Shown here piece after piece: positions 16,190 through 32,026 of a stretch of 44,553 bases of DNA. Position numbers and translations under genes: made by a program. The DNA comes from a virus, in the IMG/VR virus record IMGVR_UViG_3300037474_000099; one strand, 5' to 3'. The notes under the pieces are model-generated. The model ran no database searches. It saw nothing but the letters and a program-made list of their open reading frames with translations, and had not been told where the DNA came from. Every line of letters begins with the position of its first letter. Position 1 is the stretch's first letter.

Positions 16190-16735
16190 ATGAGAAAACT
16201 TAAAGATATTAGAAGTGACCTAGAGTTACATTATATGCAAGAATCCAGAACTGTGTTTTTTCATGGAGAAGTAGGACAATTTAAATTAGAAGATGCTTTG
16301 AGAAATTTAGATTATCTGGCTAATATAAGTAAGAAACCTATTATTTTAAGAATTTGCTCACCAGGAGGATCTGTAGATTATGGACTAGTGTTATATGATT
16401 ATATTAAAATGTCCAAAGTCCCTATTCATACGCTATGTTCAGGAATGGCAGCTTCAATGGCGGCTATATTATTAGGAAGTGGCAAAAAAGGAAAGCGTAT
16501 GGCTACTAAAAGTAGTCGTATTATGATACACCAACCATCATCAGGTTATATAGGTAAAGCGAGTGATATTGAAATTCATGCAAACGAGACTAAAAGGATT
16601 AGGAACCTTTTAAATACTATAATATCTAAAGATACAGGCCAGCCTTTAAAGAAGGTTGAAAAAGATACCGAATTAGATTTATGGATGACAGCTGAAAATG
16701 CTTTACAATATGGTATTATCGATAAAATTGTATAG
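16190..16735 (+). CDS. clpP: ATP-dependent Clp protease proteolytic subunit ClpP
   Basis: ICSPGGSV, catalytic Ser in GMAASMAA, His in IMIHQPS, Asp in EKDTELDLWMTAENALQYGIIDKIV. Full-length at 181 aa. AGGAG RBS. Confidence 0.9.
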   Translation: MRKLKDIRSDLELHYMQESRTVFFHGEVGQFKLEDALRNLDYLANISKKPIILRICSPGGSVDYGLVLYDYIKMSKVPIHTLCSGMAASMAAILLGSGKKGKRMATKSSRIMIHQPSSGYIGKASDIEIHANETKRIRNLLNTIISKDTGQPLKKVEKDTELDLWMTAENALQYGIIDKIV

Positions 16736-22905: not shown

Positions 22906-23477
22906 CACAATTTACAGGAGTGGTAAAAAAAGTAGTTTCTAAAGAAATTGATATTGCCAACAAGCCATTTATAAAACACGAAATCTCTATAGATTCAGAT
23001 GGCGAGACGAAAACAGTGTTAAAATTTACAAAACCAGAAACGACATTTGCTTTGGAAAAAGGGACTAAAGTTCAAGTAACAGGAGAAGAACAGGAAGATA
23101 AATATGGTAATACCACAATTAAAGTAAACAGTAAGCCTGAATCATTTGTATTGCTGGATCAAAACAACAAACCTAAAGATTCAGGAAAAACATGGACAAA
23201 TACTACTTCTACTACTGGTACCAAAGATGTGGCATTACGACCGACTTTCAATACATTTAATGGAGATGGTGCAAAACGTGGTAATGCATTAACTAATGCT
23301 GTAACTATGTTAATTCATAATAAAAACGGAAGTCAAATTACTATAAAAGATGCAGAAAAATTATTAGAATTAGCTAGAATGGTATTTAAAGTATCCACTG
23401 ATCTAGAAAATCCAGATACTACTTCTTCCACTAGTACAACAAAGGATTCTAATAATGAAGTTTCTCCATTCGATTAA
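22902..23477 (+). CDS. Single-stranded DNA-binding protein (putative)
   Basis: OB-like N-terminal half, a low-complexity T/S linker and an acidic/aromatic C-terminal tip (NNEVSPFD). Sits in the replication module. Confidence 0.5.
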   Translation: MTQFTGVVKKVVSKEIDIANKPFIKHEISIDSDGETKTVLKFTKPETTFALEKGTKVQVTGEEQEDKYGNTTIKVNSKPESFVLLDQNNKPKDSGKTWTNTTSTTGTKDVALRPTFNTFNGDGAKRGNALTNAVTMLIHNKNGSQITIKDAEKLLELARMVFKVSTDLENPDTTSSTSTTKDSNNEVSPFD

Positions 23478-24639
23478 CGGTATTTTAGGCAAGACTTTAG
23501 GTATAAATGAATTATTAGAGATTGGAGTTGTAGATCCAGTCTCTATAGTTCAAGATTTAGATAAGTATATTATTGGCCAAGACGCAGCTAAAAAATCTAT
23601 AGCGTTGATGCTTTTAAATAGATCCTTGTTAATGCTAAAAAAATTTGGAGTATTGTCCCCAGATTTAAAATTAACTAAGAATAATGTACTTATGTTAGGT
23701 CCAACAGGATCGGGTAAAACTGCTTTAATTAAAGCAGTAGCTGAGATATCTGATATACCTATTTATATATATGACATTACATCTACTACTGGAGCTGGAT
23801 ATTATGGATCTGATTTATTGGATATGTTAAATGAACATATAAATTATCAGTATGATTATTATAGTGAATTGTATCAAGCTCAAACGTTATCTGAAGAAGA
23901 TTTTTACAATTTTTCTTTTGACGTATTTTGTAAAATTGTAGAAAATAGTATTATATATATAGATGAAATAGATAAAATAAAAATTACTAGGGACAATTCT
24001 AAAAAAGATGGTTGGGGATCAATGCTCCAAGTTGAATTATTAAAAATGATAGAAGGACATAATGTAAATCTATTAAATGATAAAACTAGACAAACAGAGA
24101 AAACCTTAAATAAAGCTCAAATATCAAATCTTAATACTGAAAATATTTTCTTTATAGCTGGAGGAGCTTTTAGCGGTTTAGATGATATTATTAAACATAG
24201 ATTAAAAATAAATAATACTGTTGGATTTTTAACAGATTATGAACAAAAGCTTAAAATAGAAAAAAATGCCTTAGATTTTTTTAAAACTGAGGATTTAATT
24301 GAATATGGTTTCATGCCCGAGTTTATCGGTAGATTTCCAATAAAGACCGTACTCCAGTCTCATACTGTTGATACACTGAAAAAGATAATGACAAAAGCCC
24401 ATGGCTCCGTATATTTAGAATATATAGATTTATTTAAGGTTTTTGGCGTTAAATTAAAATTTAGTGATGAGGCGTTAACAGAAATAGCCAATGCAGCTCT
24501 TAAGGTAAATTTAGGAGCTAGAGCTTTAAAAAGTATTTTTAATGAGATTTTAGAAGATAAAGTTTTTAACATATTTCATGACACGCCGGGAACTATGATA
24601 ATTAGTAAAACTGAGGTAAAAAAACGATTAAAATTATAG
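23455..24639 (+). CDS. clpX: ClpX-like AAA+ unfoldase lacking the N-terminal zinc-binding domain
   Basis: LDKYIIGQDAAKK, Walker A GPTGSGKT, pore-1 loop GAGYYGSD, Walker B IIYIDEIDKI, IGF-loop equivalent TVGF, EDLIEYGFMPEFIGRFP, sensor-2 GARALKSI. Confidence 0.85.
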   Translation: MKFLHSINGILGKTLGINELLEIGVVDPVSIVQDLDKYIIGQDAAKKSIALMLLNRSLLMLKKFGVLSPDLKLTKNNVLMLGPTGSGKTALIKAVAEISDIPIYIYDITSTTGAGYYGSDLLDMLNEHINYQYDYYSELYQAQTLSEEDFYNFSFDVFCKIVENSIIYIDEIDKIKITRDNSKKDGWGSMLQVELLKMIEGHNVNLLNDKTRQTEKTLNKAQISNLNTENIFFIAGGAFSGLDDIIKHRLKINNTVGFLTDYEQKLKIEKNALDFFKTEDLIEYGFMPEFIGRFPIKTVLQSHTVDTLKKIMTKAHGSVYLEYIDLFKVFGVKLKFSDEALTEIANAALKVNLGARALKSIFNEILEDKVFNIFHDTPGTMIISKTEVKKRLKL

Positions 24640-24645
24640 GAGTAA

Positions 24646-25449
24646 ATGATGTTATTTGATTGGGCTATAATTGATATGGATCCGTTAGTATATAGATGTG
24701 GTTTTTCTATAGAAAAAATAGATAGACAAACTGGTATTTTGACAGTTGAGCCCGCACACCATGCTTTTTATAATATAAATAGTATGATGAAAAAAATTCT
24801 AAAGCATACTAAAAATAATCAATATAAAGGTTGGTTAACTTCAAATGATAAAAGTAACTTTAGATTTGATATATTTCCAGCGTATAAATCTAATAGAAAA
24901 GATGCTCGTAAACCTATATTTTATAATGAAATTAGAGATTTTCTTGTTAATAAATGGAAAGCTGAGGTAGTATTTGGTCAAGAAGCTGACGATCAGTGTA
25001 CAATAGATCATTGCGAATTAAATAAATTAGGATTTGACCCTGAAAATTTAAATTCAATAGTATGTTCTTTTGATAAAGATTTTAATAATGTTCCGGGATG
25101 GCATTATAACTTTGTTAAAGATGAAGTATATTATATTGATGAAATTCAAGCATATAGAAATTTTTATCTTCAGATATTAACTGGAGATACTAGTGATGGT
25201 ATACCCCGAATTAAAAAAGGATGGCTAAAGAAAAAAACCGAAGAATTATTATCAAAAGCCTTGACAATAGAAGAAATGGAAGATATAATACATAAAGAAA
25301 TAGAAAAACATTCAACAGAAGATTTGAATTCATTAACAATTTTTAAAGAGAGAGGTCAGCTTGTATGGCTACGTCGAGAAGCAGAGGAATTCTGGATCCC
25401 GAAAAAATGTCGAGAAAAGCAAAATTTAACTGGTTTAGAGATCAGTTAG
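24646..25449 (+). CDS. 5'-3' exonuclease / flap endonuclease
   Basis: PAYKSNRK, GQEADDQ, SFDKDF, ILTGDTSDGIPRIKKG (H3TH). Confidence 0.8.
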   Translation: MMLFDWAIIDMDPLVYRCGFSIEKIDRQTGILTVEPAHHAFYNINSMMKKILKHTKNNQYKGWLTSNDKSNFRFDIFPAYKSNRKDARKPIFYNEIRDFLVNKWKAEVVFGQEADDQCTIDHCELNKLGFDPENLNSIVCSFDKDFNNVPGWHYNFVKDEVYYIDEIQAYRNFYLQILTGDTSDGIPRIKKGWLKKKTEELLSKALTIEEMEDIIHKEIEKHSTEDLNSLTIFKERGQLVWLRREAEEFWIPKKCREKQNLTGLEIS

Positions 25450-25604: not shown

Positions 25605-25979
25605 ATGGTAAAAAACGATGCAATTATTTTTAAAAATGTAGATCATGGAGTTTTAGATAAAAAAGATTTAATTAAAAGTAAAGCATTGTTTAATAAATAT
25701 GGCATTACTTTAAAACAAAAACAACAAATGATCGAACAACAAGATGGACGTTGTTGGATTTGTAAACAAGTACCCAAATCAGGTATTCTATGTGTCGATC
25801 ATAGACATGTTAAAGGTTATAAAAAATTATCAGCAGAAGAGAGAGCTAAAGAAGTTAGAGCGTTACTTTGTTTTATGTGTAATACTGGATTACATGGAAT
25901 CGAGAAACGAAAAAATGCTCGTTATTTACTTGAAAGATATAATGAATATTTTAAAGTATTTAAGATAAAAGGCGACTAA
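25605..25979 (+). CDS. Endonuclease VII-family (Holliday-junction resolvase / HNH-like)
   Basis: QDGRCWIC....CVDHRH....LLCFMCNTGL, the Endonuclease_7 signature. Confidence 0.8.
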   Translation: MVKNDAIIFKNVDHGVLDKKDLIKSKALFNKYGITLKQKQQMIEQQDGRCWICKQVPKSGILCVDHRHVKGYKKLSAEERAKEVRALLCFMCNTGLHGIEKRKNARYLLERYNEYFKVFKIKGD

Positions 25980-26007: not shown

Positions 26008-26035
26008 TTGAATATTGTTAAATATGTGTTATAAT
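26008..26035 (+). promoter_or_regulatory. Extended -10 promoter of the SbmA-like operon
   Basis: TTGAAT (26008-26013), 16 nt, TGtTATAAT (26027-26035). Confidence 0.55.
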
Positions 26036-26063
26036 TAAAATATATAAAGGGGAGGATTTAATT

Positions 26064-26132
26064 ATGACAATGACTTTAATTTGGATTATTATTATAGCAG
26101 TGTTACTAGGTTGGTTTTTATCATTTAAGTAA
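26064..26132 (+). CDS. 22-aa TM peptide (MTMTLIWIIIIAVLLGWFLSFK)
   Basis: My own translation. Strong GGGGAGG RBS. Confidence 0.45.
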   Translation: MTMTLIWIIIIAVLLGWFLSFK

Positions 26133-26148
26133 ATTATTAGGCCTTAAT

Positions 26149-26253
26149 ATGTTAGATTTACAAACTTTTATAGATTTTTCTTTGTTATTTGGATTTTGGA
26201 TTATGGTAGGATATATATCACTTACATTGTTTGCATGGTGGATGGATTTATGA
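26149..26253 (+). CDS. 34-aa TM peptide (MLDLQTFIDFSLLFGFWIMVGYISLTLFAWWMDL)
   Basis: My own translation. ATGA overlap with the next ORF. Confidence 0.4.
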   Translation: MLDLQTFIDFSLLFGFWIMVGYISLTLFAWWMDL

Positions 26254-26525
26254 AAACACTTATTTTTATTGTTTTAATGATATTTTCATCTATTTCTTAT
26301 TCATGGTATTATTACCCAACGACTTTTTCTCCATATTATGGAGAACCTGAACCTAGAGCACAAGTTAGATTTGATATCTATACGTGTGCATTAGGTATAA
26401 CTAGAGCTGACTTGTTTTATTTAAACTACGCGACAAATACTCTTATATTAAGTTATAAAGGTAGTTTAATAACGATTCCAGCTGATGCATGTAGATTTAC
26501 ATTAGAACAAGGTAGATATTATTAA
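26250..26525 (+). CDS. 91-aa secreted Tyr/Trp-rich protein (start at MKTLIFIVLMIF, not the track start at 26196)
   Basis: N-terminal signal-like segment. Two Cys residues. Confidence 0.5.
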   Translation: MKTLIFIVLMIFSSISYSWYYYPTTFSPYYGEPEPRAQVRFDIYTCALGITRADLFYLNYATNTLILSYKGSLITIPADACRFTLEQGRYY

Positions 26526-26770
26526 TGATGAAAATAAAAGGTGTCGAATACCCAGTCAGTATATTAAAGGTTACATTACATGATGAAACTTTAACTAAAT
26601 TGGATTGGATTAAGAATAATTTAAAATTAAAAAATGATGCTGAAAGCTTGTCTATGATTATAAATTCAGTATATTCTCAATTAAAACAAATGGTGCAGTA
26701 TTACGAAAGTAATAATGTAGAAGATATGCAGGATAAGGAAGAAAAACCTAGTGAAGATAGCAAATCCTAA
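26525..26770 (+). CDS. hypothetical protein (81 aa; possibly ribbon-helix-helix-like)
   Basis: ORF track. The VTLHDETLTKLDWIKNNL strand-helix pattern is only suggestive. Confidence 0.4.
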   Translation: MMKIKGVEYPVSILKVTLHDETLTKLDWIKNNLKLKNDAESLSMIINSVYSQLKQMVQYYESNNVEDMQDKEEKPSEDSKS

Positions 26771-27584
26771 GTTTTGTATATTAATTTTAATTATATTAAC
26801 ATTAATTGAATGTTCTTTAACTGGATATATAGGATGGTGGCGGGAAGGATTTTGGTCAGCTGTACAATCCAGAAATTTAGATAAATTTTTTATATATATT
26901 GGAATGTTTTCTATAGCAGCTTTAACGACATGTTTTGTCAGTAGTTATAGCCAATATATTATCAGTTATACAAGTCTTATATATAGACATAAATTAAGCC
27001 GAAAAGCTTTAAAAATAGTCCATAAAGTAGATGTTGAAGGTAAAGAACAGAGAGTTCAAGAAGATTGTTTTAATTTCCCTTTTTATTTAATATCACTTAT
27101 AGTTGGATTTACTAAGAATTTTATTATATTGTTGGTTTTTTTAGGAATTTTAATACATCAATTAGGTTTATTTTATTTGATTTTTCCTATAACATATGCT
27201 ATAATAGGAACATGGATCGCAGCAAAATTAGCTAAACCATTATTAAATATTAATTATTTGAATCAAATGTTAGAGGCTAAGTTTAGAAGAATGTTAACCA
27301 AAATTTCATATAGTAAAGTACATAAAAATAATCTAGTTTTGTTTAAAGCTACTAAAAAACTAGCTTATTTTCAATATTTTTATAATCAAATAACGGTTAT
27401 TATACCTTATTTGGTACTATATCCTATATATTTTTCGGCTAAGATAACTTTTGGCGTATTTATGCAATGTGCTAGTAGCATGAATCAGATAATAGAATGC
27501 TTAAGTTATTTTATTAACAGTTTCAATGACATTAATAAATTTAGATCATGTAAAAAACGTCTCAATGAATTAGGAATTATTTAA
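26751..27584 (+). CDS. SbmA/BacA-like inner-membrane transporter domain protein (N-terminally shorter than bacterial SbmA)
   Basis: VEGKEQRVQEDCFNF matches the EG..QR(V/I)QED signature of SbmA/BacA and ABC_membrane_2. The C-terminal ITFGVFMQCASSMNQIIECLSYFINSFNDINKFRSCKKRLNEL parallels the SbmA C-terminus as I recall it. Multiple TM helices and no ATPase domain. Confidence 0.7.
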   Translation: MKIANPKFCILILIILTLIECSLTGYIGWWREGFWSAVQSRNLDKFFIYIGMFSIAALTTCFVSSYSQYIISYTSLIYRHKLSRKALKIVHKVDVEGKEQRVQEDCFNFPFYLISLIVGFTKNFIILLVFLGILIHQLGLFYLIFPITYAIIGTWIAAKLAKPLLNINYLNQMLEAKFRRMLTKISYSKVHKNNLVLFKATKKLAYFQYFYNQITVIIPYLVLYPIYFSAKITFGVFMQCASSMNQIIECLSYFINSFNDINKFRSCKKRLNELGII

Positions 27585-27925
27585 TGTGTAATTGTCCATT
27601 GTGCAAACTTAGTAATTATCTCACTCGTACTAGTGTCGGTACTGCTCGGCAAGGCGGATTACGTGTCGGCTCTTTATATTCTATATCAACAACCATTAAT
27701 AATGACGATCCTGCCGCCGTAAATAATTTAAATGAGTTTAAAAATAGGGAAATAGATGAAAATATAAAAATATCTAAGCGAATTGATGAATTAGCAAAAA
27801 GAATTCAAATTTTACAAAATAAAATAGAACGCATAGATTTAAGATTTAATCTTAATGTAACCAAATGGCATAGATTAGAACACGCATTAAAACGTTCGTC
27901 AGATGGAGATTCTACTAGTGAATAG
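27584..27925 (+). CDS. hypothetical protein (113 aa; N-terminal CxCxxC, C-terminal coiled coil)
   Basis: ORF track. Confidence 0.5.
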   Translation: MCNCPLCKLSNYLTRTSVGTARQGGLRVGSLYSISTTINNDDPAAVNNLNEFKNREIDENIKISKRIDELAKRIQILQNKIERIDLRFNLNVTKWHRLEHALKRSSDGDSTSE

Positions 27926-28787
27926 AAATAAATTGCCTAAAATATTGATATATGATATAGAAACGACTCCTTTAAAGGCGTGGATTTGGAGATGCGGAGA
28001 ACAAGTAGTTAGGCATAATCAATTAGATCATGGATATAACGAATATAGGATTTCTACTATTGCTTATAAATGGTTACAAGATAAGAAAGTGCATGTATTA
28101 ACTGCTGAGGATAAAATATCCCGTTTTGATGAAGAAGTTAAAAAAGCTGATATTATCATAGGTAAAAATTCTGATAGGTTTGATGTTAAACATATTAATA
28201 CTCAAAGATTATTACAGGGATTGCCTCCTATGCCTCAATGGCTAGATTCTAATGATGATTTAGAAAAACAAATGAGGCGGTTTTTTGCTTTTCCATCTAT
28301 GAGTTTAGATTATATATCTCAAATATTTGGATTAGGTGGCAAAGTTAAAATGGAATTTCAAGATTGGATTGACATAGAGAATATGAAATTATTAAAGAAA
28401 TTATTTATAGAAAATAAAGATTTATCTTATTCCCAAAGAAAAAACATCTCATTCGCTTTATTTGGCTCTGATCATTTAAGTATATTAAAGGCAGGAGATA
28501 AAGCTTTAGATAAAATGGTTTTTTATAATAAAAAAGATGTTAAGGATACTGAAAAAGCATTGCTAAAAGTATTACCCCATATTAAACTTAAACATAATGC
28601 AGCTACAGCGAATGATGGAAAAGGATGTATAACTTGCGGTAGTCTTGCATTAGCTCCTCTTAAAGTTATTATTAAAGGTAAAACAAAATATCAGCAATTC
28701 GAATGTTTAAATCATGGAGGCTATGCAGGCAAGGCAACTTGGAAATATTCAAAAACTCGTAATAAAATTTATGGTAAAATGGGTTAA
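27903..28787 (+). CDS. DEDD (DnaQ/RNaseH-like) 3'-5' exonuclease with a C-terminal Cys cluster
   Basis: Exo I IYDIETT, Exo II IIGKNSDRFDVKH, Exo III FYNKKDVKDTE. CITCGS...C...H at the C-terminus. Confidence 0.65.
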   Translation: MEILLVNRNKLPKILIYDIETTPLKAWIWRCGEQVVRHNQLDHGYNEYRISTIAYKWLQDKKVHVLTAEDKISRFDEEVKKADIIIGKNSDRFDVKHINTQRLLQGLPPMPQWLDSNDDLEKQMRRFFAFPSMSLDYISQIFGLGGKVKMEFQDWIDIENMKLLKKLFIENKDLSYSQRKNISFALFGSDHLSILKAGDKALDKMVFYNKKDVKDTEKALLKVLPHIKLKHNAATANDGKGCITCGSLALAPLKVIIKGKTKYQQFECLNHGGYAGKATWKYSKTRNKIYGKMG

Positions 28788-29005: not shown

Positions 29006-29217
29006 CTAGTATTTATAGAATATTAATGAAAAAAAGAGAATATACAATTGTAGATTGTAATAAAATAGATAATTATAAACCTATAAAAAAAGATGTTATA
29101 TTTCTAATCCAGAAAAAATATAGAAATTCTTGGAAAACCTTAAAAGAGTTATTTACGGAACGTGAAGCCAGAGATTATAAATACTTGTTAGAATTAGAGC
29201 AGGGGATTGTTATATGA
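29002..29217 (+). CDS. hypothetical protein (71 aa)
   Basis: ORF track. Overlaps at both ends. Confidence 0.5.
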   Translation: MTSIYRILMKKREYTIVDCNKIDNYKPIKKDVIFLIQKKYRNSWKTLKELFTEREARDYKYLLELEQGIVI

Positions 29218-29789
29218 CAAAATTAGATTTTACTTTAATACCATTAGAATTTGAAGATTTAGCATTAGTAGCTATGAATGGAGCTAAAAAATATGAACCT
29301 CATGGATGGGAAAAAGGATTTGATAAAGAACAGAATTTGGCATCTATTAAAAGACACTTGAATGATTATAGATCGGGGAATATGGCAGATAGTGAAAGTA
29401 AACTTCATCCATTATTACATGCCGCTTTTAGAGCTATGATGCAATATACTTTAGATAAACGAGCATCGAATACGGATGAATTATTTAAAATCGCGTCTGA
29501 ATTTGAAGCTATAACTAAAAGAATCGATAATAATTATAAAACCATAAATAGAACCAACGACCAGTCTAAAAAACCTTCCGAATTGGTTAAATCATTAAAT
29601 AATAATACTAATTTCAAATGGAAAATCCATTCGGGACAATATGATACGGATTATAAAGTAAATGAATTTAAAACGGTAAAAGGCTGCTCAGTTTATTGGC
29701 CTAAAGGATTAACTGATACTGAATCTTTGGCTGATCATGACATAGGATGTATATGCCTTTCTTGCGAAACACATTTTTGGGGTAAATGA
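29214..29789 (+). CDS. dATP/dGTP diphosphohydrolase N-terminal-domain-like protein
   Basis: LIPLEFEDLALVAMNGAKKYEPHGWEKG...IKRHLNDYRSGNMADSESKLHPLLHAAFRAMM resembles the dGTP_diPhyd_N pattern (L.P....va.v..fGa.KY....W.kg....RH......G...D.eSg..Hl.Ha). Recognised from memory. Confidence 0.5.
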   Translation: MTKLDFTLIPLEFEDLALVAMNGAKKYEPHGWEKGFDKEQNLASIKRHLNDYRSGNMADSESKLHPLLHAAFRAMMQYTLDKRASNTDELFKIASEFEAITKRIDNNYKTINRTNDQSKKPSELVKSLNNNTNFKWKIHSGQYDTDYKVNEFKTVKGCSVYWPKGLTDTESLADHDIGCICLSCETHFWGK

Positions 29790-30170: not shown

Positions 30171-30237
30171 GTTTTCAATAATCTATTTAATAATGGTATT
30201 GATAGTTGTACTGTGTATATTAATTAGAGGTATATAA
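30163..30237 (+). CDS. 24-aa TM peptide (MIEFSIIYLIMVLIVVLCILIRGI)
   Basis: My own translation. Overlaps both neighbours. Confidence 0.35.
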   Translation: MIEFSIIYLIMVLIVVLCILIRGI

Positions 30238-30641
30238 TGTCAAAACTTTATTATTTAGCATCTCCGTATACTCACAAAAATACAAAAATAATGAAAAAAC
30301 GATTTATAGACGTTTGTAAATTATCAGCGTATTTATTAAAAAAGGGAATTCATACTTTATGTCCAATAGCTTCATCTCATCCAACTGCAAAATATGGTAA
30401 GATTAGAAGCACAATGTGGAAAGATTGGGCAAAATTAGATTTAAATTTTTTAAAAAGATGTGATGGTATTTTAATTTCGGTTTTGGATAAAGAATGGATG
30501 AAGTCAATAGGAATGAAAGCCGAATTAGAATTTGCTTTAAAAAATAATATACCTGCTAGATTAATAACTAAAGACGGGAAAATATTAAATTTTAGTGGCA
30601 AAGAAATATTAGAAATGTTTAAAATAAAAGAGGCAGTTTAA
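30237..30641 (+). CDS. DUF1937 / nucleoside 2-deoxyribosyltransferase-like protein
   Basis: YYLASPYTH......RF......A.LLKKG....CPI..SHP...W...D...L..CD...ISVLDKEWMKSIGMKAELEFA pattern. Confidence 0.55.
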   Translation: MSKLYYLASPYTHKNTKIMKKRFIDVCKLSAYLLKKGIHTLCPIASSHPTAKYGKIRSTMWKDWAKLDLNFLKRCDGILISVLDKEWMKSIGMKAELEFALKNNIPARLITKDGKILNFSGKEILEMFKIKEAV

Positions 30642-30642
30642 T

Positions 30643-31395
30643 ATGATTTTAAAAACAATAATTATATCGATACTTGCATTAGTAATAGGATTTAATCCAG
30701 CCGCAATAAAAACATCGACTTCAATTCATCCAGTCGCTATAGTTAAAGGAGAGACATCAGGAAAGAGTTTTACAAAATGGTATTCACAAGGATCAGCTTT
30801 TTTTATAACTGATGACGGATATTTAGGAACAGCTGCGCATGTTGTTAAGGATACAAAAAACACGACAATTTGGTATGACGGTAAATTTATTCCGGCTAAA
30901 GTGGTAATGGTAGATGAAGATGCTGACACAGCGATATTAAAAGCTGATTTAAAAAAGAAAAATGCTTATTTTAATATATCTAAACCTAAACATGGAGAAG
31001 TTGATACTATTTTAGGGTTTCCATCAGTAAGTAATTTTGGATTTTATTTACACGCAACAACTGGAATTTCTCAATTAGGAATTGGTTATATTTCAATATA
31101 TGCTATGTCGTGCCATGGCAATAGTGGCGGAGCTGTAGTTAATTCTAATGGCGATTTAGTAGGAATTTTGACTTTAGGATTTGCAGATGGATTTACACCA
31201 GATGGTTTATGTTCTTCGCATGCTGGAGCGGTTTATTTGGATCGATTAATTTCAATGGCTACTCAATTAAATCTAAATATAAATAAAACGTTTGACAAAA
31301 AAGAAGTCAAACTACAATCACAATCAGACATGATTAGTAATATAAATAATGAACAAAAAGTAGTATTTGTTCAAAGTGAAATATTAGATAAATAA
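30643..31395 (+). CDS. Secreted trypsin-like (S1/Trypsin_2) serine protease
   Basis: Signal-like N-terminus. His in GTAAHVV, Asp in DADTAILKA, Ser in CHGNSGGAVVNSNGDLVGI. Confidence 0.75.
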   Translation: MILKTIIISILALVIGFNPAAIKTSTSIHPVAIVKGETSGKSFTKWYSQGSAFFITDDGYLGTAAHVVKDTKNTTIWYDGKFIPAKVVMVDEDADTAILKADLKKKNAYFNISKPKHGEVDTILGFPSVSNFGFYLHATTGISQLGIGYISIYAMSCHGNSGGAVVNSNGDLVGILTLGFADGFTPDGLCSSHAGAVYLDRLISMATQLNLNINKTFDKKEVKLQSQSDMISNINNEQKVVFVQSEILDK

Positions 31396-31400
31396 AGCCT

Positions 31401-31922
31401 ATGAAATCTTATATAATCGATATTATAGCGTATTCATTATTAATTTTTATTCTATGTGTATTAAATATGACAAACTTATCCCAAAATTCACAAGATAACA
31501 TTAAAGCGGTTAAAATAGCCGCTAATAATGTATTTTCATCTGAAATATTAGCTGATTTAGCAGTAGCTCAATCTATATTAGAATCTAATTTATATGGTAA
31601 ACCAAGTGGATTAGCTTATAATAGTAATAATTTATTTGGTATTAAAGGCTCTGGAACAGCAGGAAGTGTAGTTAGAGAAACTAGAGAATATGTTAAAGGA
31701 AAATGGATAACTATTCAGGATAAATTTGCAGCTAATAATTCTTTAGAAGATTCCTTTAGACAGTATAAAAAAGTATTAGAACTGCCCAGATATAAAGCGG
31801 TACTAGAGTCTAAGACATTTGAAGAAGCCGCAAAAGCAGTATGGAAGGGAGGGTATGCAACAGATCCTAATTATCCTAGTAAATTAATAGCTATTTATAA
31901 TAAATATATTAAGGATAATTAA
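31401..31922 (+). CDS. Endolysin: mannosyl-glycoprotein endo-beta-N-acetylglucosaminidase (FlgJ/LytD-type) with an N-terminal signal-anchor
   Basis: AQSILESN..G.S.LA...NNLFGIK...F..Y.S.EDS...Y...L....YKAV......A..A...GYATDPNY..KL. TM segment at aa 5-25. Confidence 0.8.
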   Translation: MKSYIIDIIAYSLLIFILCVLNMTNLSQNSQDNIKAVKIAANNVFSSEILADLAVAQSILESNLYGKPSGLAYNSNNLFGIKGSGTAGSVVRETREYVKGKWITIQDKFAANNSLEDSFRQYKKVLELPRYKAVLESKTFEEAAKAVWKGGYATDPNYPSKLIAIYNKYIKDN

Positions 31923-32026
31923 TGAAAATTACAAAGGAAGATATTAGGACTATATGCAGTGTATTAAGTGTATTGTTGCAATTGACAATTCTTTATGTTA
32001 CTCTGCATATTTGGAAATTTATTTAG
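31922..32026 (+). CDS. 34-aa TM peptide after the endolysin (lysis accessory?)
   Basis: My own translation: MKITKEDIRTICSVLSVLLQLTILYVTLHIWKFI. TAATG overlap with the endolysin stop. Confidence 0.4.
   Translation: MKITKEDIRTICSVLSVLLQLTILYVTLHIWKFI

Follow-up and report, generated by a model that had tools for sequence, protein, structure and literature searches.

A six-helix, ATPase-free transmembrane domain of the SbmA/YddA superfamily as a core gene of an uncultured phage clade

The DNA analyzed here, hereafter the window, is IMG/VR record IMGVR_UViG_3300037474_000099, an AT-rich sequence of 44,553 nt (30.8% GC) which represents an essentially complete phage genome of ~44.5 kb and makes up nearly all of a 44.7-kb contig. 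On its plus strand it carries a gene (26751–27584, GTG start) for a 277-aa membrane protein of the SbmA/BacA-YddA/BclA superfamily, which consists of a transmembrane domain (TMD) of six transmembrane helices (TM) and nothing else. The gene is preceded by four small open reading frames (ORFs), and a first-pass annotation, made from the sequence alone, had read the five genes as an operon of small membrane or secreted peptides closing with a truncated SbmA/BacA-like transporter. From comparison of the protein and its surroundings with those of its relatives, the best explanation overall appears to be a different one, namely a phage-encoded minimal TMD working as a homodimeric, ATP-independent carrier, with the small genes as a separate insert. 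This is held tentatively, at a probability of about 0.45.

Placement of the protein in the superfamily is supported by sequence profiles and by structure. It matched PF05992 (SbmA_BacA) at E=1.4e-20 and 74.4 bits (cut-off 24) over profile positions 15–309 of 315, and PF06472 (ABC_membrane_2) at E=6.6e-14 and 52.4 bits (cut-off 24.4), the latter over positions 15–203 of 269 only. The homology claimed in the first-pass annotation, for which these two profiles had been named beforehand as the refutation test, was thus borne out, and the EG..QRVQED signature that it had reported is present as VEGKEQRVQED. A profile built from 23 homologs aligned to residues 93–388 of Escherichia coli SbmA (PDB 7p34) at E=8.5e-28, followed by Rv1819c and the ABCD transporters. 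An AlphaFold model computed from 74 sequences (predicted local distance difference test, pLDDT, 92.5) has six long helices, the sixth of which is broken, and with this model Foldseek ranked SbmA first (9g3d/9g3g, TM-score on the query, TMq, 0.81–0.82), then Rv1819c (TMq 0.75), ABCD3 and MsbA. The scores on more specific models were low, at 58 bits for NF008306 (the SbmA equivalog, cut-off 492 bits) and 76.9 bits for NF009036 (PRK12369, cut-off 385 bits). When the family profile was run against 1.84 billion representatives, the top long matches were half-transporters of the ATP-binding cassette (ABC) type at 128–167 bits, with E. coli SbmA at ~100 bits. Identity to bacterial relatives is ~22–27%.

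The gene belongs to the conserved core of a clade of uncultured ~45-kb phages. A total of 67 homologs were found with 39–66% identity, all of ~276 aa and several of them on contigs of 40–48 kb. In the alignment of 23 homologs, which fall in the same range of identity to the window protein, 34 columns are invariant, including those of the motifs QRxQxD and NQxxEAxFR and the tryptophan W35, which indicates purifying selection on the gene. Three cysteines, C61 (in TM2), C106 (right after QRVQED) and C267 (in the C-terminal LSCRKRL helix), are also invariant or nearly so in the phage family, and are absent from the corresponding positions of SbmA and of an ABC-type homolog. Two of the three are predicted to be cytoplasmic, and they could form a metal or redox site.

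SbmA, a proton-driven importer, possesses a TM0 domain and a six-TM core and is powered through a glutamate ladder in which every residue is required for transport (PMC8442886; PMC13316013), with the loss of any single one abolishing or crippling transport (PMC8442886). This ladder (SbmA E193, E203, E269, E276, E287 and E378) was mapped on 90 members of the phage family. The equivalents of E193 and E276 are kept, and the remaining positions are occupied by I/L/V (E203), N (E269), N/S (E287) and K/R/N (E378), so that 72 of the 90 members have acidic residues at two of the six positions (range 1–3), as against all six in SbmA-type proteins. The residues found instead, hydrophobic at 203 and Asn at 269, are those of the YddA/BclA type of ABC half-transporter, which has the same incomplete ladder; for YddA this has been remarked on in the literature (PMC13316013). 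Together with the higher profile scores of the ABC half-transporters, the state of the ladder argues against the earlier description of the protein as a truncated SbmA. Of the gating residues of SbmA, the cytoplasmic pair Y285/D288 falls in a loop that is deleted from the phage family. The periplasmic gate residue Y116 corresponds to the invariant W35, and the position of Y368 remains aromatic (Y/F253).

The protein is shortened at both ends and in its loops. Median segment lengths, given here for the phage family, SbmA and the ABC type respectively, are 29, 112 and 56 residues for the N-terminus before W30; 20, 22 and 32 for the TM2–TM3 cytoplasmic loop; 32, 46 and 54 for the TM4–TM5 cytoplasmic loop (54 being invariant in 67 ABC-type sequences); and 8, 21 and 237 for the C-terminal tail. 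The TM0 domain (TM0a/TM0b) is missing altogether. The first-pass annotation was right that the N-terminal part of SbmA is lacking, and its figure of roughly 120 residues was too high, as the alignment starts with SbmA residue 93 at phage residue 10, so that ~85 residues are missing. The N-terminus of the phage family is also too short for the elbow helix of ABC transporters. Relative to the ABC-type homolog P0100, 11 residues are deleted from the TM2–TM3 cytoplasmic loop, 15 from the TM3–TM4 periplasmic loop and 22 from the TM4–TM5 cytoplasmic loop, the last deletion taking out the ABC-type ENAEGIAFYRGE (EAA-like/coupling-helix) segment. In agreement with the first-pass annotation, no ABC ATPase with Walker A and LSGGQ motifs was found in the window; no LSGGQ motif was seen, and Walker A motifs are limited to the ClpX-like ATPase, DnaB, TerL and one 303-aa ORF. 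Likewise, no called gene matched PF00005 or another ABC ATPase in loci L001–L003, L084–L088 and L090–L091 (related loci are designated here by L numbers). By its sequence, the protein is accordingly a minimal orphan TMD which fails the defining features of both the SbmA and the ABC class, and at ~276 aa it is the most reduced superfamily member among those compared here.

The likenesses and differences to known systems follow the same lines. With SbmA/BacA (the SbmA-like peptide transporters, SLiPT, importing peptides and bleomycin; PDB 7p34 and 9g3d–g), which are its best structural match, the phage protein shares PF05992, a six-TM core with a broken TM6, the EGxxQRVQED and NQxxEAxxR motifs and the absence of both a nucleotide-binding domain (NBD) and coupling helices. 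It differs in lacking TM0a/TM0b (SbmA has eight TM per protomer), in its two of six ladder glutamates, in loops that are shorter throughout and in being phage-encoded. The half-transporters of the YddA/BclA/Rv1819c type (PF06472 plus PF00005) are its closest long relatives by profile score and have the same TMD fold and ladder-position residues; unlike them, the phage protein has no NBD, nor is one encoded in the genome, and it has no coupling-helix inserts and no room for an elbow helix. A third comparison is with the putative transporters of NF009036 (PRK12369, ~326 aa) and their marine T4-like viral relatives, which are also members of the SbmA superfamily without TM0 or NBD, some of them on viral contigs beside replication and nucleotide-metabolism genes. 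These marine viral proteins, however, have five or six of six ladder acids, 290–409 bits on NF009036 and lengths of 320–355 aa, compared with two of six, 76.9 bits and ~276 aa for the window family.

By analogy with all characterized relatives, the 277-aa protein would homodimerize to give an alternating-access conduit of 12 TM in the inner membrane of the host. The solute moved would be bulky and hydrophilic, and its passage would need no ATP, depending instead on facilitated diffusion or on proton coupling of a kind other than SbmA's. Transport would likely run inward, into infected cells, during phage replication, when the protein would be made. Candidate substrates, again by analogy, would be cobalamin-like cofactors, peptides and nucleotide-like compounds. 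Precedents for transport without an NBD are SbmA/BacA themselves and LmrA, which without its NBD is driven by the proton gradient (PMC8442886). SbmA has moreover been proposed to descend from a YddA TMD that parted from its NBD (PMC13316013; PMC12912959), and such an origin makes it plausible that a bare TMD can be a working transporter.

A number of points weigh against this carrier. Since the loss of one ladder glutamate cripples SbmA, a protein with two of six may not be an SbmA-style proton symporter, and it could equally be a passive pore or no transporter at all. TM0 is a stabilizing scaffold in the view of the SbmA authors (PMC12912959; PMC13316013), which by analogy would bear on the stability of a dimer that has neither TM0 nor elbow; homodimerization is itself assumed from the relatives. 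As to the substrate, searches of the window and of 13 related loci revealed no Rfam element or riboswitch, for cobalamin or otherwise, and so no clue, and no B12-dependent enzyme or substrate-binding protein was found in the window. The place of the gene among replication genes may reflect expression timing only. Finally, in ~5 of 11 lineages, including L084, L005, L008 and L086, the slot in front of the transporter gene is taken by unrelated small proteins with a TM or a signal peptide, which may suggest a loose, though not specific, functional link to the transporter.

In IMG/VR, at least 453 stretches encode relatives of the protein, and those that were read are 238–355 aa long and of two kinds. 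The first is the window family itself, with 270–280 aa and one to three ladder acids, including the sub-lineages L006, L008 and L012. The second comprises SbmA-like proteins of 316–355 aa without TM0, many of them marine, which possess five or six of the six ladder acids and are close to NF009036. This second group spans L013–L083 (e.g., L020 3956–4927 and L024 3941–4912). Its genes are found with those for T4-like gp43 PolB, gp32, gp62, RegA and gp23, for dNMP kinase, ribonucleotide reductase and NT5C, and at one locus with PolA, primase and helicase genes; the presence of these distant, TM0-less genes amid replication and nucleotide-metabolism genes is an independent recurrence in viral contigs. 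A metagenome search for close relatives returned, among the matches listed, almost exclusively distant marine proteins and at least one member of the family (L092). In the sub-lineage L008 (2289–5631) the SbmA-like gene was observed amid genes for an M48 peptidase, an HlyIII-like 7-TM protein and small TM ORFs, with a lysozyme gene on the opposite strand.

Cultured phages gave no counterpart. No near-identical or similar DNA was found among the GenBank phages (50,697 records), and tblastn of these with the window protein and a marine relative returned two to four doubtful records only, with no cultured phage carrying a member of either group. Literature searches found no paper on phage-encoded SbmA-like proteins. 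The statement in the first-pass annotation that no phage system of this composition had been described is consistent with these results. The viral structures of UniProt yielded nothing but full-length ABC transporters, those of giant viruses and of one metagenomic myovirus. In BFVD, an uncharacterized 291-aa protein of Catovirus CTV1 (A0A1V0SBY5) aligns with the model along almost all of its length (TM-score on the target, TMt, 0.66) and, from this structural similarity, may be another virus-encoded TMD-only ABC-like protein.

The genome of the window phage is divided between the strands, the minus strand carrying genes for the large terminase, portal, major head and head-closure proteins and the plus strand those for a DnaB-like helicase, family-A polymerase, ClpP, ClpX-like ATPase, 5'-3' exonuclease, endonuclease VII (EndoVII) and RNaseH-like exonuclease. 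The transporter gene is placed in this plus-strand string of replication and nucleotide-metabolism genes and is closely packed with them. Gene order is the same in all related loci read, running from the ClpX-like ATPase through the 5'-3' exonuclease, a small acidic protein, EndoVII, a variable slot, the SbmA-like gene and a small variable ORF to the RNaseH-like exonuclease. The EndoVII gene (25605–25979, +; PF02945, 2.4e-14) is the conserved left anchor of the slot, with homologs upstream of the transporter gene in L003, L004, L084, L086, L088 and L090. The conserved right neighbor is a gene for an RNaseH-like exonuclease or DNA-polymerase exonuclease subunit (27903–28787, +; phrog_403, 2e-38), homologs of which adjoin the SbmA-like gene in 10 loci. 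Between this exonuclease gene and the transporter gene lies p113 (27584–27925, +), found only in the window phage, which is coupled to the transporter gene by a TAATG overlap and is followed by a 23-nt overlap with the exonuclease gene. Overlapping or abutting genes then continue as a tight string up to 29789, and no plus-strand terminator-like site was found downstream of the transporter gene before 29974, so that the operon does not appear to end at the transporter as had been proposed.

Several other features of this region were observed. Farther along the same string are genes for a dATP/dGTP diphosphohydrolase N-terminal domain (29214–29789, +; PF18909) and a DUF1937 protein (30237–30641, +), nucleotide-metabolism accessory genes that are conserved across the clade. 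The phage has its own ClpP protease (16190–16735, +; PF00574, 1e-55), which with the ClpX/ClpB-like AAA+ ATPase (23455–24639, +) would form a phage-borne protease pair. A perfect sigma-70 consensus, TTGACA-17-TATAAT (25261–25289, +), lies within the 5'-3' exonuclease gene and is either an internal promoter or a chance occurrence in AT-rich DNA. Within p113 there is a GC-richer patch (27600–27700, +; 0.41 vs. ~0.25), which was considered as a structured RNA and rejected, its predicted fold being no better than those of shuffled sequences (z=+1.3). In the window and the phages closest to it, ~4 kb separates the transporter gene from the lysis genes, which in the window encode a trypsin-like peptidase (30643–31395) and a glucosaminidase (31401–31922). 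A candidate holin-like lysis gene, a hydrophobic ORF of 34 aa (31922–32026, +) with a Shine-Dalgarno (SD) sequence, begins at the glucosaminidase stop codon.

With respect to the host, SD motifs were found upstream of 37 of the 60 window genes, against a background of 9%, and the promoters are sigma-70-like, which points to an SD-using host of low GC content. The sole match in genome collections was a relative with 42% identity on a 44-kb contig binned in a Bacteroidota metagenome-assembled genome. This assignment is weak and probably does not apply to the window phage, as its SD usage and sigma-70-like promoters argue against a host of the Bacteroidota type.

The small genes upstream of the transporter gene were confirmed as ORFs at the positions first annotated for them. 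They follow a promoter-like site of the sigma-70 type, TTGAAT-16-TGtTATAAT (26008–26035, +), which is present ahead of them as described in the first-pass annotation and lies in the 84-nt gap after EndoVII, the sole sizeable intergenic gap. Motifs of this sort alone occur at chance level (55 sites in the real DNA vs. 53.7 in shuffles); the consensus TTGACA-17-TATAAT occupies the same position in the diverged relative L090, and the site is a probable promoter of the block formed by p22, p34 and p91. The first of these, p22 (26064–26132, +), encodes a 22-aa single-TM peptide and has the strong SD sequence AAAGGGGAGG upstream, as had been noted before. Among 129 six-frame ORFs of 20–40 aa with an ATG start, it is one of two which join an SD match of at least 5 nt to a hydrophobic 17-mer (maximal Kyte-Doolittle value, KDmax, at least 2), the other being the 34-aa ORF at the glucosaminidase stop codon. 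It is found in the window phage only, with no homolog in any related locus. The second, p34 (26149–26253, +), encodes a 34-aa hydrophobic one-TM peptide and overlaps p91 by ATGA; a 36-aa ORF of L090/L091 with the same overlap is its homolog (alignment z=5.8, none of 2000 shuffles scoring as high). The third, p91 (26250–26525, +), encodes a small protein of the secreted type with a signal-peptide-like N-terminus, 12 Tyr, 1 Trp and 2 conserved Cys, much as first described. A search of 5.8 billion proteins returned a single homolog of it (P0223), with 65% identity and both Cys kept, from the same slot of a related phage.

The fourth small gene, p81 (26525–26770, +), encodes a soluble, acidic-tailed protein of 81 aa and overlaps the start of the transporter gene by 20 nt. 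It is present in 6 of about 13 lineages (5 besides the window), usually overlapping the transporter start, and absent in the others, and thus appears from gene order to be a frequent, translationally coupled and dispensable companion of the transporter. No Pfam or PDB sequence match was found for p81, and a word-based homolog search returned p81 alone. A role as a ribbon-helix-helix regulator was considered and rejected, as only a sequence pattern suggested it, neither Pfam nor PDB profiles gave a match, and the AlphaFold model, computed from one sequence, was too poor to be used (pLDDT 64.7). For none of the five genes did PHROGs offer an informative family.

The five genes do not behave as a conserved system, since p22 occurs in no other lineage, p34 and p91 in one and p81 in five. 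The p34–p91 pair recurs with its promoter in L090/L091 only, where the ATGA coupling, both Cys and a consensus promoter are retained. In L003, L004, L084, L086, L087, L088, L006 and L012 the transporter gene is present, and p22, p34 and p91 are all absent. The slot is otherwise filled by YopX and a p81 homolog in L003; in L088 EndoVII directly adjoins the transporter gene, and in L087 a PD-(D/E)XK nuclease gene does so. There is no intergenic gap after EndoVII in L003, L084, L086 and L088, which lack the p34–p91 block. Because the cassette and promoter are confined to the window phage and L090/L091 and other lineages have no such gap, the simplest reading is that p22, p34 and p91 with their own promoter would be an independent, moron-like insert in a hypervariable slot and not partners of the transporter. 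Like phage morons, the block lies between two conserved genes, is led by a promoter and is absent from other relatives; unlike them, it is followed by no terminator, and transcripts would run on into p81 and the transporter gene. In L084 (3599–3811) and L005 (3532–3678) the same slot was observed to contain small proteins that have a signal peptide and two Cys and are not homologous to p91; the 70-aa secreted protein of L084 was tried as a p91 homolog and rejected, the alignment not being significant (z=1.6).

This pattern bears directly on the possibility that the window encodes a self-contained peptide/transporter system, in which p22, p34 and p91 would be cargo, signal or regulators, for example a secreted signal re-imported by the phage importer. 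In its favor, a single promoter-like site is followed by closely spaced genes of one orientation, the p34–p91 arrangement recurs in L090/L091, unrelated small signal-peptide or TM proteins fill the slot in L084, L005, L008 and L086, and proteins of the SbmA family do import peptides (PMC8442886). However, the transporter gene is always present in the eight loci that lack all three small genes, a nuclease gene directly abuts it in L087 and L088, and p91 has a lone homolog among the billions of proteins searched. A cassette with its own promoter is the hallmark of an independent insert, and a folded disulfide protein of ~70 aa would be an unlikely cargo, so that we consider such a system very improbable. 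A second possibility is that the stripped TMD dimer is a membrane permeabilizer, a leak or pore which would dissipate the proton-motive force or release small molecules in host shut-off or lysis timing. With most ladder glutamates gone and the Y285/D288 gate missing from a shortened TM4–TM5 cytoplasmic loop, the conduit could be poorly gated, and the neighbors of the gene in L008 encode an HlyIII-like protein, an M48 peptidase and a lysozyme. In the window phage and those nearest to it, by contrast, the gene is ~4 kb away from the lysis genes, where a separate small TM ORF follows the glucosaminidase gene. An uncontrolled leak expressed early would harm replication, and the gate-equivalent residues W35 and Y/F253 are conserved; such a role is therefore judged to be quite improbable.

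Interference with a host transporter, or superinfection exclusion, would require the TMD to pair with a host YddA, BclA or SbmA protomer or to take its place, with the dead heterodimer blocking uptake of a peptide, toxin or entry factor of a competitor phage. This would be in keeping with ladder-position residues that are those of YddA/BclA-type ABC TMDs and with the precise deletion of the NBD-coupling elements, as a heterodimer with one NBD would, from the ABC mechanism, be non-functional; early or middle expression would also suit an exclusion function. An identity of only ~22–27% to bacterial relatives, on the other hand, makes a preserved heterodimer interface unlikely, the kept periplasmic gate W35, cavity and gating motifs suggest a self-contained function, and in the literature searched no phage was found to depend on inner-membrane SbmA or YddA. 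We regard interference as unlikely. None of the roles put forward in the first-pass annotation (exclusion, import of a peptide signal or poisoning of the host transporter) is favored by the comparative data, and the homodimeric carrier is preferred. A bolder form of the carrier, for which we see a rather small chance, is that the phage family is a living example and mobile vehicle of the postulated intermediate, a YddA-like TMD freed from its NBD and moved horizontally. It would then be an autonomous importer of six TM per protomer without ATPase, TM0 or ladder, through which the replicating phage would control the uptake of a specific hydrophilic compound, either a metabolite or a cofactor, or conceivably that of a secreted peptide of its own making.

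To our knowledge, few integral inner-membrane transporters are encoded by bacteriophages. Here, a putative one is conserved in the core of an entire uncultured clade, with relatives in at least 453 IMG/VR stretches and none in a cultured phage. The interest of the window lies in this orphan minimal TMD as a core phage gene, the idea of a peptide operon not being supported. The protein offers a natural test of the abilities of a type-IV-ABC-like TMD standing alone, and it is relevant to the recently proposed descent of SbmA from a YddA TMD parted from its ATPase. If metabolite import is true, it would be an unrecognized auxiliary function coupling phage replication to uptake, and if the protein instead blocks an importer of the host, this would be a new mechanism of exclusion. 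Should the protein prove to be an autonomous importer, it would represent a new class of phage-encoded inner-membrane transporter.

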